In this document: in pieces, positions 1,812 to 35,338 of the stretch
How the letters are laid out: the number at the start of each line of letters is the position of its first letter
Numbering within the stretch: the stretch's first letter is position 1
Assembly: GCA_020437725.1 (NCBI GenBank)
Contig: JAGQWA010000002.1
Span: 1-35,377, forward strand
Length of the DNA stretch: 35,377 nucleotides
DNA from: Bacteroidota bacterium
GTDB taxonomy: Bacteria > Bacteroidota > Bacteroidia > CAILMK01 > JACPUW01
Direction of reading: 5' to 3'
The notes under the pieces: generated by a model
What the model was told of the DNA's origin: nothing
Seen by the model: the letters and a program-made list of their open reading frames with translations, nothing else
The model's database searches: none
Program-made: the position numbers and the translations under genes

Positions 1812-3044
1812 ATGAAAAATCTAATAATATTAGGAGCAGGTACGGCAGGAACCATGATGAGCAATCATCTACACAAACGTTTACCGGCAGATTGGAAAAT
1901 AACCATAGTTGATCAACGTACTGAGCATTATTACCAACCCGGTTTTCTATTTGTGCCTTTTGGCATTTATGAGCCCGAAGAAATTGTGAAGCCCATTTCT
2001 AAATTTATTCCAAAAGAAGTTGATTGGCTACAAATTGAAGTAGATAGAATTGATAAAGATACTGACACGGTTTATCTTAAAAACGGCGATTCTTTACCCT
2101 ATGATGTTTTGGTAATTGCCACAGGAAACGACATTGCGCCAGAAGAAATTGAAGGCATGAGCGGCGAAGGTTGGCATAAAGACATTTTCGACTTTTATAC
2201 TCTAGAAGGAGCCACTAAGCTTCATCAAAAACTCAAAGATTTTGAAGGTGGAAAGGTGGTAGTTCACATCTGCGAAATGCCCATAAAATGCCCTGTTGCA
2301 CCATTAGAATTTGCTTTTTTGGCCGATGCCTATTTCGAAAACCGTGGAATTAGAGATAAAGTTGATTTAAGCTTTGTTACACCTATGAGTGGGGCATTTA
2401 CCAAACCAAAGGCCACCGAAAAACTCGATTATCTTCTTAAAGAAAAGAACATAAACGTTGTGCCTGACTTTAACATTGAACGAGTTGACAACAACGAAAA
2501 AAAGATTTATGATTATGCTGGGCAAGAAGTAGCTTATGATTTGCTTATTACTACACCCACTAACATGGGTTCAAAGGCCATTGAGCGTTCAGGTTTTGGC
2601 GATGAATTGAACTATGTACCAACCAACAAGGCCACGTTACAAACCAAGGTAAAAGACAACATTTTTGCTATTGGAGATGCCACCAATGTTCCTGCTTCAA
2701 AAGCGGGCTCGGTAGCGCATTTTGAAGGCGAAGTTTTATTAGAAAACGTATTAAACTATATAGAAGGCAAGCCTTTAAAAGAAGGGTTTGATGGCCACGC
2801 GAATTGCTTTGTAGAAACAGGCCATGGCAAGGCATTACTAATAGATTTTAATTATACCCATGAGCCTGTTACAGGCACATTCCCTTTTCCGGGTGTTGGC
2901 CCACTCAGACTTTTAAAAGAAAGTAGAATGAACCACATGGGCAAAATGGCTTTTAAGTGGATTTACTGGAACATGCTCATTACCGGAAAGCATATTCCTT
3001 TTATCCCAAACAAAATGCAATTAGCCGGTAAAAACTTTGATTAA
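1812..3044 (+). CDS. sulfide:quinone oxidoreductase-like NAD(P)/FAD-dependent oxidoreductase
   Basis: N-terminal Rossmann motif IILGAGTAGT and a second dinucleotide motif FAIGDAT. The Cys-containing blocks IKCPVAPLEF and HANCFVETG resemble SQR-family redox cysteines. The neighbouring genes are sulfur-relay genes. Confidence 0.8.
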   Translation: MKNLIILGAGTAGTMMSNHLHKRLPADWKITIVDQRTEHYYQPGFLFVPFGIYEPEEIVKPISKFIPKEVDWLQIEVDRIDKDTDTVYLKNGDSLPYDVLVIATGNDIAPEEIEGMSGEGWHKDIFDFYTLEGATKLHQKLKDFEGGKVVVHICEMPIKCPVAPLEFAFLADAYFENRGIRDKVDLSFVTPMSGAFTKPKATEKLDYLLKEKNINVVPDFNIERVDNNEKKIYDYAGQEVAYDLLITTPTNMGSKAIERSGFGDELNYVPTNKATLQTKVKDNIFAIGDATNVPASKAGSVAHFEGEVLLENVLNYIEGKPLKEGFDGHANCFVETGHGKALLIDFNYTHEPVTGTFPFPGVGPLRLLKESRMNHMGKMAFKWIYWNMLITGKHIPFIPNKMQLAGKNFD

Positions 3045-3091
3045 ACTAAATCTAACACACTAAAAAACTAACACGCTAATTCACTAGAAAC

Positions 3092-3400
3092 ATGGAAAAA
3101 ATAATAGCAAACCAAAGCATTAATGTAAACGACGAAGGTTACTTAACAAACCACTCGCAATGGAATAGGGAAATTGGCCATGCCATAGCCCAAGAAGAAG
3201 GTATTGAAATGACCGACCACCACTGGAAAGTGGTTGATTATCTGCAAGAACAGCATAAAAACGACGTGCCACTTACCATAAGAAGAGTGGGCAAAAGCGG
3301 TGTTGTAGATATTAAAGGGTTCTACGAATTGTTTCCAAAGGGACCGCTAAAAACCAGTAGCAAAATTGCCGGTATACCCAAACCTGCCAGTTGCATTTAA
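3092..3400 (+). CDS. TusE/DsrC/DsvC family sulfur relay protein (single-Cys, TusE-type)
   Basis: 102 aa. The motifs GYL..HSQWN, HWKVVDYLQE and the flexible C-terminal arm GIPKPASCI with a penultimate Cys are the family hallmarks. This is the only Cys in the protein; the second DsrC Cys is absent. Confidence 0.9.
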   Translation: MEKIIANQSINVNDEGYLTNHSQWNREIGHAIAQEEGIEMTDHHWKVVDYLQEQHKNDVPLTIRRVGKSGVVDIKGFYELFPKGPLKTSSKIAGIPKPASCI

Positions 3401-3425
3401 TTACTCAAAAAAATAATAAATTACT

Positions 3426-3917
3426 ATGTCTAAAGATCCACAACCATATGGCGATGTAAGCAAAATGATGATCATTTTGTCAAAAGCCACCATAGATAAT
3501 GTTTATGCGTGTTTCATTTTGGCCAATGGTGCCAGAATGGAAGGCATTGAAGCTGAAATATTCTTCACCTTTTTTGGGCTCGAAGCCGTTAACAAAAAGA
3601 AGTTGAACCATTTAAAAGTAGCCACGGTAGGCAATCCTGCCATGCACATACCCACTATGTTGGGCGGTTTGCCAGGCATGGAATCTATAGCCACCAATAT
3701 GATGAAAAAAGAAATGGAGAAGCTTGATATTCCACCAGTTGATGAGTTTTTGGAAATACTTTCGGCTTCGGGCGTAAAACTTTGGGGTTGCAAATTGGCC
3801 ATGGAAATGTTTCACCTTGAGCGCGAAGATTTGCTTGACGAACTTGACGGTATTTTAACCGTTGGCGATTTTTATAAAAGAGCTGATAGGGAGGGTACGC
3901 ATATGTTGTTTATATAA
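3426..3917 (+). CDS. DsrE/DsrF/DrsH-like family protein
   Basis: 163 aa. MMIILSKATIDNVYACFILANGA ... GVKLWGCKLAMEMF matches the DsrE-like fold pattern as I recall it. It lies 25 nt downstream of the TusE-like gene. Confidence 0.8.
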   Translation: MSKDPQPYGDVSKMMIILSKATIDNVYACFILANGARMEGIEAEIFFTFFGLEAVNKKKLNHLKVATVGNPAMHIPTMLGGLPGMESIATNMMKKEMEKLDIPPVDEFLEILSASGVKLWGCKLAMEMFHLEREDLLDELDGILTVGDFYKRADREGTHMLFI

Positions 3918-33084: not shown

Positions 33085-33304
33085 ATTGAGCGAAGCGATC
33101 AATTGCCAAATTGGCTAATTCAAATCATTATCACATTAAACAATTATTGAATTCCAATCATTATCACATTACCACATTAAGCAATTATTGAATTAAATTC
33201 AATTCTCAAATTAAAAATAATCGTCTAATTGAGCTAAGCGACCAATTGCCAAATTGGCTAATTCAACTCATTATCACATTACCACATTAATTAATTATTC
33301 AATT
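33085..33304. repeat. complex intergenic direct-repeat array
   Basis: A 54-nt unit occurs at 33085-33138 and at 33228-33281 with 51/54 identical positions. The sub-unit tcattatcacatta occurs at 33125, 33158 and 33268. caattattgaatt occurs at 33141 and 33182, with a variant at 33292. The palindrome gccaa-a-ttggc occurs at 33105-33115 and 33248-33258. Confidence 0.85.
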
Positions 33305-35144
33305 AAGAATTCTTTTTCCCGAAACCATAAAAAAGCTGCCCCCAAAAGCTTTTCGGAAACTCATCAATATCATCGAAACCGAGTTCTATTTCGCCATTTT
33401 GGGTGTCTTTAATATAATTGGTTCCGAAAAGATAATCCCAAATACTAAGGCTAATGCCAAAGTTAACACCAGGCATTTGTCCTTTGGGTAGGGCCTTAAC
33501 ATGGTGCCATAAATGCATTACTGGATTATTGAAAATGTACTTAAACGGACCATAAGTCCAGTTAAGATTGGCGTGGTTTAAGTGGCCAATGGCAATGGCA
33601 ATGTAATGCACTATAAAAGCATCTTTTGGCTCGCCACCAACCAAAAGCATTACTACAAGGGTTTTGAGTGGTTTGTAGAAAATATTTTCCATCCAATGGT
33701 AGCGCAAATGCGCCGCAAAACCCATTTCTTGCACCGAATGATGCACCTTGTGGAATCTCCATAAGAACTCGAACCTGTGCAGCATAACGTGGGTAAACCA
33801 CTGCACAAAATCGTTGAGAATAAAGAAAATGAGCAGCCCTAACCATGGCGCCATTTCTTTAATGTTGATGATTGCTATATCATCGGTTTCATATCCAAGC
33901 CAAGAACCTGTCAGTGCCGATAATTCAAATAACCCTTCTATCGCAAACCTGAATATATAGAAGTTGAAAAACATGTAGAAAGCATCTAACCAAAAATCCT
34001 TTCGAATCTTCTGTTGATTCTTGCGCCAAGGAAACAGCATTTCAAGAGCCCATACAACTAGGGAGAGAATTACCAACCACCAGAAATAATTCACATACCA
34101 ATTGTTGTATTGAAATGTAATTTCTTTCCAGATGTAAACTCCATAATTTGAATAAGCTTTAAGTATTGAATCTAAAAAACTTTGAAAAACGCTTGAGTTT
34201 GCAGTAATCATTTTTTTATCCTGTTTAGTAGTTGAAATTTCTTCTTTTGGTGTTAGAACGAATGAACCTGTTTCAAAAGGCAAGTTGGTTGCACTCCATT
34301 CAATCCACGAGCCATCATAATTTCTTACTTGTGTGTAACCCAATAGCTGAGTAAGTACAAACGTGGTATGGGCTGATCGAACTCCTGAATGACAATAAAT
34401 AACGGCAGGCTCATCTTTCTTTAGGCCCAAACTGGCCATTTTTCGCTGCAAATAATCCAGCTCGCGCAGCTTTTTGTTTCCATCATAATAAACACTATTG
34501 GCCCAATCGTAGAGCACACTGCCTTTAATTCTACCCGGTTTTGCAGCACCGTCTTTCTGTTTTTCTCCTAAATACTCTTCAGTGGTTCTGGTATCAATTA
34601 ATGGCACTTTGCCATGTTTTACTAATTCTTCTACCCCACTTCTATCAATTTGAAGACTTTGATCTTCTTCATTTTCAAAAACAAATTGCGTGGGTTTTCT
34701 TTCCGTTTTGGTTGTTTCAACTTCAAAGCCAGCGTTCTGCCATTCTACCAGTCCACCATCAAGCAATTGCACATTTTTAAAGCCGTAGCCATACATAATC
34801 CACCAAAAGCGAGCAGCATCGCAATTGCCTTTGGCATCATAAGCAATAATGGGTTGGGTATGCGTAATGCCTAACGAACTCAACAACTCAGCCATTTGCG
34901 CTTTGCTGGCTTTCATTCCGCCAACCGAGTTTGCTGCATCTTGAATGTCAGGACGCCAAATTTGAACTGCACTTGTAATATGACCTTCAGCAAACTCTTC
35001 AGGTTTTCTCACATCAAGCAACTGCACATTTTCGGTTTGCATTTTTACCTGTAGTTCTTCTACAGAAACCAGTGGTTCAACCTGTGCTTTTGCTTGCAGC
35101 GAACCAATTATCAACCCTAAAACCCAAATAAACCTTGTGCGCAT
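33303..35144 (-). CDS. fusion protein: signal peptide + tandem rhodanese (sulfurtransferase) domains + membrane fatty-acid hydroxylase/sterol desaturase-family domain
   Basis: The N-terminus is MRTRFIWVLGLIIGSLQAKAQ. Rhodanese 1 contains LLDVRKPEEFAEGHI. Rhodanese 2 has the active-site loop IYCHSGVRSAHT (Cys codon at 34392-34394, residue 251). TM helices follow, then the His boxes HVMLH, HKVHHS, HLRYHW, HLNHAN and HLWHH of the FA_hydroxylase family. Confidence 0.85.
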   Translation of the reverse strand: MRTRFIWVLGLIIGSLQAKAQVEPLVSVEELQVKMQTENVQLLDVRKPEEFAEGHITSAVQIWRPDIQDAANSVGGMKASKAQMAELLSSLGITHTQPIIAYDAKGNCDAARFWWIMYGYGFKNVQLLDGGLVEWQNAGFEVETTKTERKPTQFVFENEEDQSLQIDRSGVEELVKHGKVPLIDTRTTEEYLGEKQKDGAAKPGRIKGSVLYDWANSVYYDGNKKLRELDYLQRKMASLGLKKDEPAVIYCHSGVRSAHTTFVLTQLLGYTQVRNYDGSWIEWSATNLPFETGSFVLTPKEEISTTKQDKKMITANSSVFQSFLDSILKAYSNYGVYIWKEITFQYNNWYVNYFWWLVILSLVVWALEMLFPWRKNQQKIRKDFWLDAFYMFFNFYIFRFAIEGLFELSALTGSWLGYETDDIAIINIKEMAPWLGLLIFFILNDFVQWFTHVMLHRFEFLWRFHKVHHSVQEMGFAAHLRYHWMENIFYKPLKTLVVMLLVGGEPKDAFIVHYIAIAIGHLNHANLNWTYGPFKYIFNNPVMHLWHHVKALPKGQMPGVNFGISLSIWDYLFGTNYIKDTQNGEIELGFDDIDEFPKSFWGQLFYGFGKKNS

Positions 35145-35317
35145 TCGTCCAAATTTCAGTTCAAATAATGGAATTTAAAGCAAGCTTATGTGTAACTATT
35201 GTTACGATGGTGTTTCAACCGCAACGGATATATTGCAGCGGTGTAGTGGATTTTGGGAATTATTTATGGGGTTAGCCCCATCCCATTGGAGCCGTCTAAA
35301 AAGTGACAAAAGCCGTC

Positions 35318-35338
35318 ATTCTGAACTTGTTTCAGAAT
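35318..35338. repeat. perfect 8-bp hairpin (attctgaa-cttgt-ttcagaat), REP-like intergenic element
   Basis: The arms are 35318-35325 and 35331-35338. The motif resembles a hairpin (GTCATYCTGAA...TTCAGRAT) that I recall being dispersed in intergenic regions of Bacteroidota genomes. The window ends (35369-35377, agatcctga) in what could be the start of a second copy. Confidence 0.45.

Follow-up and report, generated by a model that had tools for sequence, protein, structure and literature searches.

The window analysed here, a 35,377-nt stretch of DNA from a Bacteroidota bacterium, carries near one end an open reading frame (ORF) of 613 residues in which a rhodanese half is joined to a membrane half of the FA_hydroxylase family. 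The locus raises the question of what a sulfurtransferase-type protein and a di-iron membrane enzyme have to do with one another, and whether the two are truly one protein in this organism.

Domains and predicted topology of the fused protein

The features of the ORF and of the region upstream are collected in Table 1. The Pfam Rhodanese model matched the ORF in two stretches (E 2.6e-38, 131 bits versus a cut-off of 22), and in an alignment of 37 full-length fused homologues residues C251, R256 and S257 of the second domain were invariant. The first domain carries an invariant Asp103 at the position of the active domain's Cys in the same 37 homologues. The two rhodanese modules and the CHSGVRS loop (Cys251) named in a preliminary description of this DNA were thus borne out. 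By sequence the rhodanese half matched PDB entry 1UAR at E 8e-36, and Foldseek returned the tandem-rhodanese structures 1UAR and 3HWI with TM-scores, normalised by target length, of 0.87-0.92. Its fold and the six-residue Cys loop of its C-terminal domain point to a tandem-domain rhodanese with predicted thiosulfate sulfurtransferase activity. The name 3-mercaptopyruvate sulfurtransferase SseA, given to homologues by JGI, was rejected, as the NCBIfam model scored 104 bits against a cut-off of 250 and the loop (CHSGVRS here versus CG[ST]GVT) also contradicts this identity.

Table 1. Features of the fused gene and its upstream region (positions in the window)
Feature	Position	Strand	Basis or remark
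Palindromic box GTAACAATAGTTAC, perfect, GTA-N8-TAC type	35192..35205	.	centre 54 nt upstream of ATG
ATTATTTG, 22 nt after box	35162..35169	-	register of relatives' Bacteroidota -7 element TAnnTT(TG)
Fused ORF, 613 aa	33303..35144	-	signal peptide, tandem rhodanese, linker, 5-TM FA_hydroxylase domain
Signal peptide, aa 1-20 (MRTRFIWVLGLIIGSLQAKA/Q), without lipobox Cys	35085..35144	-	sequence; model helix 2-17
Rhodanese domain 1, aa 27-138, non-catalytic	34731..35066	-	Pfam best stretch, invariants, tandem-rhodanese structures
Rhodanese domain 2, about aa 165-291, catalytic	34272..34652	-	Pfam, model, PDB matches
Active-site loop C251-H-S-G-V-R-S257	34374..34394	-	invariant residues
Flexible linker, aa 298-317, pLDDT below 50	34194..34253	-	model; contains A7 run 34211-34217
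Periplasmic amphipathic helix, aa 318-342, start of membrane half	34119..34193	-	model; kept in stand-alone homologues
TM1, aa 353-370, extra helix placing N-terminus outside	34035..34088	-	model, invariants
TM2-TM5, core of FA_hydroxylase fold, aa 384-524	33573..33995	-	model
Pfam FA_hydroxylase match, aa 438-575	33420..33833	-	Pfam
His box HVMLH, H452 + H456 (aa 452-456)	33777..33791	-	invariant
His box HKVHH, H465 + H468 + H469 (aa 465-469)	33738..33752	-	invariant
HLRYH, H479 + H483 (aa 479-483)	33696..33710	-	invariant
HLNH, H521 + H524 (aa 521-524)	33573..33584	-	invariant
His box HLWHH, H544 + H547 + H548 (aa 544-548)	33501..33515	-	invariant

The membrane half was recognised by Pfam FA_hydroxylase (PF04116) with E 5e-25 and 88.9 bits versus a gathering cut-off of 31. 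All the His motifs reported earlier were found, and their 12 His residues were invariant in the 37 fused proteins; 11 of the 12 were also invariant in a set consisting of the window's domain and 37 stand-alone or split sequences. The sole NCBIfam match of this half was to ornithine lipid hydroxylase OlsE, an assignment which was rejected on its score of 83-86 bits versus a cut-off of 475 and on the aligned region, which comprised only the C-terminal 170 residues.

At the N-terminus of the ORF, MRTR is followed by a hydrophobic core and by AKA/Q, which has the look of a type-I signal peptide, and comparable N-termini were present in all 37 aligned fused homologues, in agreement with the cleavable-looking signal peptide noted previously. 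The linker and several TM helices of that description also reappeared in the model, as a low-pLDDT segment of about 20 residues and five helices. Directly after TM1 stands an invariant basic loop (PWRKxQxxxRKDFWLD), and positive-inside charge counts on the AF2 helices gave a net +2.9 for loop 1 and +3.5 for the C-terminal part, with negative periplasmic loops. The preliminary description had also called for a topology prediction; run on the model, this placed the rhodanese half, predicted to be exported, in the periplasm and the His-box di-iron site on the cytoplasmic face. The flexible linker would tie the exported rhodanese to the membrane half, whose N-terminus is placed in the periplasm. 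Such a placement of the two sites on opposite faces of the membrane argues against a direct hand-over of sulfur to the iron centre. The membrane-domain model had a pLDDT of 83 and a pTM of 0.81; no solved structure matching this domain was found in the PDB by phmmer, profile search or Foldseek of the domain alone, and Foldseek with the full 613-aa model returned rhodaneses only, with no match for the membrane half.

Fused and split forms and the four-gene operon

The ORF had been described as an unusual fusion, a label which does not hold, as the rhodanese and FA_hydroxylase architecture was found in about 100 protein clusters at 90% identity and is the fused version of neighbouring operon genes. 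The two halves are encoded by adjacent genes in most relatives, cultured Aquimarina and Winogradskyella among them. These two genes close an operon of four, and the 613-aa ORF is their read-through fusion. The pairing itself is real, and the preliminary description knew of no characterised case; in the literature searched on rhodanese with sterol desaturase or FA hydroxylase, sulfite oxidase or dehydrogenase, SorA/SorB, sulfonolipid desulfonation and Flavobacteria/Bacteroidetes, neither the pairing nor the operon was found. As Rosetta-stone evidence, the fusion indicates a shared place of action for the rhodanese and the membrane enzyme. A lipobox-like Cys motif was present in 6 of 99 fused proteins and absent from the other 93, whereas in almost all of 32 split rhodaneses the hydrophobic core is followed by a Cys (23 by motif search, about 31 by inspection). 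It appears from these N-termini that the protein tether of the fused forms stands in for the lipid anchor of the split rhodaneses. The protein tree called for 13 or more switches between the fused and the unfused state. The rhodanese half was of no use as a marker of fused versus split ancestry, being equidistant from both groups (median 41% identity to each).

The junction in this particular copy deserves caution. The last A of the A7 run in the linker starts the in-frame ATG of M312, which is sited where stand-alone homologues begin, and removal of one A would create a TGA stop overlapping that ATG and so divide the ORF into two genes. The copy in the window may therefore really be two genes, with the A7 run miscounted in assembly and the halves separated by an ATGA stop/start overlap in this organism. 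This would be in keeping with the split genes of two genomes of the same family (G002 and G004) and with the position of the window's protein, which branches apart from the main fused clade. We nevertheless consider an artefact unlikely. The signal peptide has no lipobox Cys, which is typical of the fused forms and argues for an authentic fusion. P0004, which forms the next branch, is unambiguously fused and has neither a Met nor a homopolymer where its halves meet. In addition, the assembly of this genome, in 687 contigs, suggests short reads (the platform is not stated), with which errors in an A7 run would be uncommon.

The operon consists, in order, of genes for a SorA-like sulfite dehydrogenase, a membrane monohaem cytochrome c, a lipoprotein rhodanese and the di-iron membrane protein, and is widespread in marine Bacteroidota. 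All four parts were present at 31 of 90 loci, and SorA, cytochrome c and FA_hydroxylase at 10 of the 90. It occurs with a fused rhodanese-FA_hydroxylase gene at two loci (L017 and L018) and with split genes in G002, G004, Aquimarina intermedia DSM 17527 and Winogradskyella sp. HB-48; in the nearest fused relative the SorA-like and cytochrome c genes are adjacent to the fused gene but divergent. The SorA-like protein is a Tat-exported molybdoenzyme of the SUOX fold with a Mo-co dimerisation domain. It matched chicken sulfite oxidase at E 2e-49, with the Mo-ligand Cys and the sulfite-pocket Arg and Tyr aligned, and scored 249 bits against NCBIfam SorA (cut-off 600); the match of the cytochrome c to NCBIfam SorB was weak (20 versus a cut-off of 93).

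Among 200 genomes sampled at class level, the membrane protein was present in 37 and SorA orthologues in 7, six of which lay on the same strand 0.5-2.1 kb upstream of the membrane gene. As 31 of the 37 carriers were without SorA, it is SorAB that travels with the membrane gene and not the reverse. Other neighbours of the membrane gene were an exported single-domain rhodanese, PDO-rhodanese, thioredoxin, TauE/SafE, SulP and a TPMT-like methyltransferase. In several genomes the PDO-rhodanese gene was no more than 4 kb away from the membrane gene; its co-occurrence was discarded as a signal, since it was found in 162 of the 200 class genomes and does not discriminate. The membrane half has at least 8000 relatives at E <= 1e-20 and is often encoded alone, without the operon partners.

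Genomic context and the putative regulatory box

In the genome of the window, the SorA-like and cytochrome c genes were located on another contig, C386, where the pair is followed by a Mrr-like gene; the 286-aa gene after the cytochrome c at locus L103 was not homologous to it. The window's own contig ends 233 nt upstream of the fused gene, which is its own transcription unit behind the box listed in Table 1. This box, GTAAC-N4-GTTAC, is of the Crp/Fnr (NtcA-like) type, and the genome also encodes a homologue of a Crp/Fnr-type regulator and a PDO-rhodanese. No copy of the box was visible upstream of the C386 SorA/cytochrome c genes.

At other loci the box lay upstream of the operon's first gene in 32 of 41 cases with SorA and was present at 10 of the 46 loci where the membrane gene occurs alone, the remaining 36 having no box within 260 nt. 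No second palindromic motif was enriched in the box-less loci. In 33 of 43 boxes TAnnTT followed exactly 22 nt after the box. The genome of the window contains five perfect boxes, four of them 53-61 nt before start codons, and three of these four genes are sulfur genes; the box precedes rhodanese and YeeE-type genes. As about 4.5 perfect boxes are expected from base composition, there is no enrichment genome-wide and only the placement is enriched. The box and the -7 element in register make the fused gene a candidate member of a putative sulfur regulon under an NtcA-like Crp/Fnr regulator.

With respect to the sulfur theme of the locus, the preliminary description had drawn on an SQR/TusE/DsrE trio in the window. 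This trio (SQR/DsrC/DsrE, at 1812-3917) lies 30 kb from the fused gene and has no copy of the box, and is therefore not evidence of linkage. A sulfur context for the pairing was supported on other grounds, namely the SorAB-like genes elsewhere in the same genome and the shared putative activator box.

Proposed function, alternatives and related systems

We favour, with a probability of roughly 0.55, an inducible sulfur-oxidation module composed of the exported rhodanese, SorAB and the membrane oxygenase, the last being functionally upstream of SorAB and most plausibly sulfite-yielding. The module would be part of an inducible system acting on thiosulfate, sulfane sulfur and sulfite, which it would oxidise or detoxify. 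In it the rhodanese would move sulfane sulfur and, on the outer side of the inner membrane, release or consume sulfite, and SorAB would convert sulfite to sulfate. The membrane oxygenase would carry out an O2-dependent reaction on a membrane-soluble substrate, for which a sulfonated lipid and membrane-dissolved sulfane sulfur are candidates. The near absence, in the class, of SorA orthologues without an adjoining membrane gene suggests that the membrane enzyme acts before SorAB, possibly as a producer of sulfite. Sulfite formed at its iron site, predicted to be cytoplasmic and away from both the rhodanese and SorAB, would require export. The many carriers without SorA, together with the lone loci without a box, suggest that the core role of the family may not be sulfur-specific, and to our knowledge every characterised FA_hydroxylase member acts on lipids and not on inorganic sulfur.

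A more specific proposal, which we regard as doubtful, is that the membrane half, instead of tailoring lipids, generates sulfite in an O2-dependent step of a heterotrophic sulfur pathway, with SorAB oxidising its product. It might act as an S-oxygenase on membrane-dissolved sulfane sulfur supplied by the tethered rhodanese, or as a headgroup C1-hydroxylase desulfonating Bacteroidota sulfonolipids; cleavage by hydroxylation has precedents in AGMO within the superfamily and in TauD and SsuD on sulfonates. Either form, if true, would add a new chemistry to the FA_hydroxylase superfamily and give marine sulfur cycling a new enzyme class.

Against these sulfur-based readings stands that of an ordinary, OlsE-like lipid hydroxylase, tentative in our estimation, which would act on an acyl chain or headgroup of an envelope aminolipid, sphingolipid or sulfonolipid. 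Its co-regulation with sulfur-stress genes would adapt the envelope, and the fusion, chemically neutral, would merely exchange the lipid anchor of the rhodanese for a protein anchor. The Pfam assignment, the single NCBIfam match, the size of a family whose members usually stand alone and the two active sites predicted on opposite membrane faces are all consistent with this, and a join that has been made and lost repeatedly would seem to be near-neutral in itself. The OlsE score is, however, far below its cut-off, and a lipid hydroxylase leaves unexplained both the near-constant company of SorA and the membrane gene in the class and the exported rhodaneses that recur next to the membrane gene in several arrangements. 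Sulfur-linked lipid modification, or sulfide sensing that controls lipid remodelling, as put forward in the preliminary description, is a possible role. A further alternative would have electrons pass from sulfite through SorA and the membrane cytochrome c to the di-iron centre, the cytochrome taking the role of the cytochrome b5 of eukaryotic members and O2 serving as final acceptor independently of the sulfide-sensitive haem-copper oxidases. FA_hydroxylase enzymes require an external two-electron donor, and the gene order (SorA, a small single-TM haem protein, di-iron enzyme) and the dependence of SorAB on the membrane gene would suit such a sulfite-driven oxygenase or oxidase. The CxxCH haem domain must nevertheless lie in the periplasm, whereas the His boxes are predicted on the cytoplasmic side, and the periplasmic half of the helices has no invariant His or cofactor ligands for electron transfer across the membrane. 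In view of this predicted topology we rank lower, and hold to be very improbable, a supply of electrons from a periplasmic cytochrome c to the di-iron centre.

Marine Flavobacteriia and related bacteria play a major part in breaking down algal organic matter, and they are seldom classed among the sulfur oxidisers. A conserved operon that appears to be regulated by sulfur is now defined in them. Its di-iron membrane component, for which no role in sulfur metabolism is known, is annotated everywhere as sterol desaturase, the name borne by all its named relatives. The cultured carriers (Aquimarina intermedia DSM 17527 and Winogradskyella spp.) make the question directly testable, and an answer would tell what a family of thousands of proteins does.

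Among known systems, the operon resembles SorAB of Starkeya novella and SorT/SorU in having a Tat-exported SUOX-fold molybdoenzyme followed by a small monohaem cytochrome c. It differs in scoring under the NCBIfam SorA and SorB cut-offs and in the membrane anchor of its cytochrome, and we know of no described SorAB system in which a rhodanese and a di-iron membrane protein come next. The fusions of persulfide dioxygenase (PDO) and rhodanese (CstB, BpPRF, Blh) likewise join a rhodanese to an O2-dependent iron enzyme in a sulfide- or persulfide-responsive regulon, but theirs is a soluble mononuclear MBL-fold enzyme and not an integral-membrane His-box di-iron protein, and here the rhodanese is periplasmic, with the two sites predicted on opposite sides of the membrane. 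Scs7p/FA2H (with fused cytochrome b5), OlsE and AGMO share PF04116 and the His pattern HX3H, HX2HH, HX2HH plus extra His, and FA2H also shares the four-helix core with an N-terminal accessory domain. In the protein described here, in contrast, the N-terminus comes to lie on the periplasmic side through an extra N-terminal helix, and the accessory domain is a sulfurtransferase and not an electron carrier. Sud-Psr of Wolinella succinogenes is also a periplasmic rhodanese-type carrier genetically coupled to a membrane-attached periplasmic Mo enzyme; that enzyme belongs to the DMSO-reductase family, is reductive and has PsrC as partner, whereas the present operon combines a SUOX fold and an oxidative direction with a di-iron oxygenase.

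Domain content and distribution of the fused protein

Two rhodanese stretches (E 2.6e-38) and an FA_hydroxylase domain at aa 438-575 (E 5e-25, 88.9 bits versus a gathering score of 31) were recognized by Pfam in the window's protein. NCBIfam gave no above-threshold match, only sub-threshold matches to an SseA-type sulfurtransferase (104 bits versus a cut-off of 250) and to the ornithine-lipid hydroxylase OlsE (83 bits versus a cut-off of 475). Alignment of 37 full-length homologues showed no variation at C251, R256 and S257 of the rhodanese loop, nor at 12 histidines (H452, H456, H465, H468, H469, H479, H483, H521, H524, H544, H547 and H548). Pfam and this alignment bore out in every detail the rhodanese modules, CHSGVRS loop and His boxes of the preliminary description. 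The rhodanese half matched the solved tandem rhodanese 1UAR by sequence search (E 8e-36), and Foldseek comparison with solved tandem rhodaneses gave TM-scores of 0.87-0.92, normalised by target length.

The fusion had also been described as unusual, a claim that did not survive an architecture search of a large protein collection, in which approximately 100 clusters (90% identity) of 590-700 aa carried both domains. JGI labels some of these 'SseA/sterol desaturase', and some originate from Crocinitomix or Flavobacteriales bins. As an architecture the fusion is genuine, yet it is not rare. The stand-alone membrane family is very large, with at least 8000 candidates at E <= 1e-20, and "sterol desaturase family protein" is the name of every relative for which a source name is given.

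Variants were observed among the homologues P0102-P0107 and P0090-P0100, namely proteins of ~460 aa with apparently a single rhodanese domain joined to the membrane domain, and proteins of ~690 aa with roughly 80 additional residues; in P0113 the membrane domain is combined with a CarboxypepD_reg-like domain. Close membrane-protein homologues at loci L082 (record labelled 'Unicellular cyanobacterium SU2') and L086 (record labelled Saccharospirillaceae MAG) lie on contigs not labelled Bacteroidota and likely reflect binning contamination or lateral transfer.

A four-gene operon and the co-occurrence of its parts

In two other genomes of the same family, G002 and G004, four separate genes encode a sulfite-oxidase-family molybdoenzyme, a CxxCH protein of ~140 aa, a tandem-rhodanese lipoprotein, and an FA_hydroxylase protein of 290-295 aa that shares 67-70% identity with the C-terminal half of the window's protein. 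Aquimarina intermedia DSM 17527 and Winogradskyella sp. HB-48 likewise have these four genes unfused. On two long contigs carrying the fused gene, the molybdoenzyme and small haem protein genes lie immediately upstream with overlapping junctions; the fusion joins two adjacent genes of the operon. Chicken sulfite oxidase matches the molybdoenzyme (E 2e-49), with its Mo-ligand Cys and pocket Arg and Tyr aligned, and the NCBIfam SorA score was 249 bits, under the cut-off. The small haem protein gave a weak SorB match (E 6e-4) and matched haem-binding Pfam families.

Among 90 loci surveyed, all four parts were found at 31, molybdoenzyme, cytochrome and membrane protein without the tandem rhodanese at 10, the membrane protein with neither molybdoenzyme nor tandem rhodanese alongside at 46, and incomplete sets at the remaining 3. 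At L031 and L040 (Saprospiraceae / Bacteroidetes MAGs) the order was permuted to rhodanese, membrane protein, SorA-like molybdoenzyme and cytochrome c.

Co-occurrence was analyzed in 200 class-level genomes, each at least 90% complete. The membrane protein (E <= 1e-40) was present in 37 and SorA orthologues (at least 57% identity) in 7, and in 6 of these 7 the SorA gene shared the strand of the membrane gene and preceded it by 0.5-2.1 kb. SorAB, the SorA-like enzyme with its SorB-like cytochrome, thus accompanies the membrane protein, which itself mostly occurs without SorAB. This asymmetry would be expected of a membrane enzyme that works upstream of SorAB or is required by it, and is hard to explain by chance co-regulation.

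An exported single-domain rhodanese was encoded near the membrane gene at 9 of the 46 membrane-gene-alone loci and at 14 of 43 that carry SorA or the cytochrome. A PDO(MBL)-rhodanese fusion, a thioredoxin, a Crp/Fnr regulator and a c-type cytochrome of ~340 aa with CxxCH motifs were often nearby with or without SorA, and a TPMT-like methyltransferase, TauE/SafE and SulP were likewise among the more frequent neighbours regardless of SorA.

A conserved upstream box and the locus of the fused gene

Features at the fused gene and at related sites in the same genome (C, contig of that genome)
Feature	Position	Strand	Remark
Fused-gene ORF	window 33303-35144	-	encodes 613 aa
A7 run	window 34211-34217		ends in in-frame ATG (M312), at start position of stand-alone proteins
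Perfect palindrome GTAACAATAGTTAC	window 35192-35205		centre 54 nt upstream of fused-gene ATG
Other boxes	C8:1607, C33:23476, C22:9175, C667:2180		48-61 nt before genes for YeeE/YedE-like protein, lipoprotein rhodanese, cytoplasmic rhodanese, permease
CTTTTTAGACNGNTCCA, copy 1	window 35271-35287	-	upstream of fused gene, same orientation
CTTTTTAGACNGNTCCA, copy 2	C386 15-31 (L019)	+	upstream of SorA-like gene, same orientation

A box of the form GTAAC-N4-GTTAC (one mismatch allowed, no more than 260 nt before the first gene of the operon) was found at 32 of 41 SorA-containing loci and at 10 of 46 membrane-gene-alone loci. In 33 of 43 boxes from related loci it is followed at exactly 22 nt by TAnnTT, the Bacteroidota -7 element. 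The window has ATTATTTG in this register; in P0004, the nearest fused relative, the box is degenerate and TATCTTTG comes 22 nt after it. The genome to which the window belongs has only 5 perfect boxes versus ~4.5 expected from base composition; 4 of the 5 lie 53-61 nt before start codons, those of YeeE/YedE-like, lipoprotein rhodanese, fused and permease genes, and a box with one mismatch precedes a cytoplasmic rhodanese gene. Judged by sequence, the boxed YeeE/YedE-like, permease and two rhodanese genes outline a small putative sulfur regulon, and the fused gene is probably a member of such a sulfur-responsive regulon. The genome also encodes a PDO-rhodanese and a homologue of the Crp/Fnr regulator that neighbours the membrane gene in relatives.

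The window is a complete contig and stops 233 nt upstream of the fused gene. This genome's SorA-like and cytochrome genes are found on another contig, C386. The arrangement is probably similar to that of P0004 (L103), where the fused gene forms its own unit, divergent from kbl, SorA and cytochrome c. On C386 (L019) an Mrr-like restriction-endonuclease gene at 1954-2811 (+) follows the cytochrome c gene, in the slot of the rhodanese gene in relatives, which suggests that the operon has been broken up or rearranged in this genome. The 17-nt motif CTTTTTAGACNGNTCCA has only two copies in the 3.84-Mb genome and was not found in 100 related loci; it could represent another regulatory site common to both genes, or what is left of a promoter region that was duplicated. 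Also upstream of the fused gene is a hairpin, TTCTGAA-N5-TTCAGAA (35318-35338), close to the contig end and perhaps a small REP-like element; the genome contains 7 matches to TTCTGAA-N3-7-TTCAGAA.

Topology, possible role and origin of the junction

In the AF2 model of the window's protein (pLDDT 83.5), the two rhodanese domains lead via a disordered linker at aa 298-317 to an amphipathic helix (aa 318-342) and then five membrane helices. Over the 37 homologues, net charge was +2.9 in the loop that follows TM1 and contains the invariant PWRKxQxxxRKDFWLD, +3.5 in the C-terminal part, and negative in the linker region and TM2-TM3 loop. These counts and the signal peptide suggest an N-terminus outside and a C-terminus inside, such that the rhodanese half would be exported to the periplasm and the His boxes would be cytoplasmic. 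The first helix is additional to the canonical four-helix core and is present in the stand-alone proteins too, so that their N-terminus is also predicted to be periplasmic, and a read-through fusion to an exported protein would be harmless.

In our preferred reading, an inducible periplasmic system deals with thiosulfate, sulfane sulfur and sulfite, and the fused protein would be its membrane-attached module. The rhodanese would handle sulfane sulfur and sulfite, SorAB would oxidize sulfite to sulfate, and the di-iron enzyme would perform an O2-dependent step on a membrane-soluble substrate, feeding SorAB. Candidate substrates are sulfonated lipids, whose C1 hydroxylation would release sulfite, and sulfane sulfur dissolved in the membrane. 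Against such a sulfur step, every characterised FA_hydroxylase-family member acts, to our knowledge, on lipids, and the iron site is predicted on the opposite side of the membrane from the periplasmic enzymes. A less probable alternative is an ordinary lipid hydroxylase, with the fusion being neutral. An oxygenase driven by sulfite and fed via cytochrome c is disfavoured by the predicted topology and appears very improbable. The component families are all known; our literature search found no paper on the rhodanese-FA_hydroxylase fusion or its combination with a SorA-type operon, and within the scope of that search neither the combination nor a sulfur role for a 'sterol desaturase', as implied here, has been described.

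With respect to the junction (GAT AAA AAA ATG ATT), loss of one A from the A7 run yields AAA AAA TGA, a stop overlapping the ATG as in two coupled genes. Single-base length changes in this run therefore switch the locus between a single fused gene and a translationally coupled pair, a plausible route for recurrent fusion and fission in the family; a miscounted run would make the fusion a homopolymer artefact. We consider such an artefact improbable, as the Cys-less signal peptide of the window's protein argues for a genuine fusion in this organism. A Cys straight behind the hydrophobic core identifies almost all of 32 split rhodaneses (23 by motif search, ~31 by inspection) as lipoproteins, whereas only 6 of 99 fused proteins have a lipobox-like Cys motif; fusion appears to swap a lipid anchor for a protein anchor. 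No A7/ATG remnant was present at the P0004 junction. On the membrane-domain tree the fused state requires at least 13 changes, and the window's protein stands apart from the main fused clade, beside split forms of its own family. Its membrane half is 67-70% identical to split proteins of that family (L002, L003) and its rhodanese half only 36-41% identical to their rhodaneses, a gap which points to unequal rates or a replaced N-terminal half.
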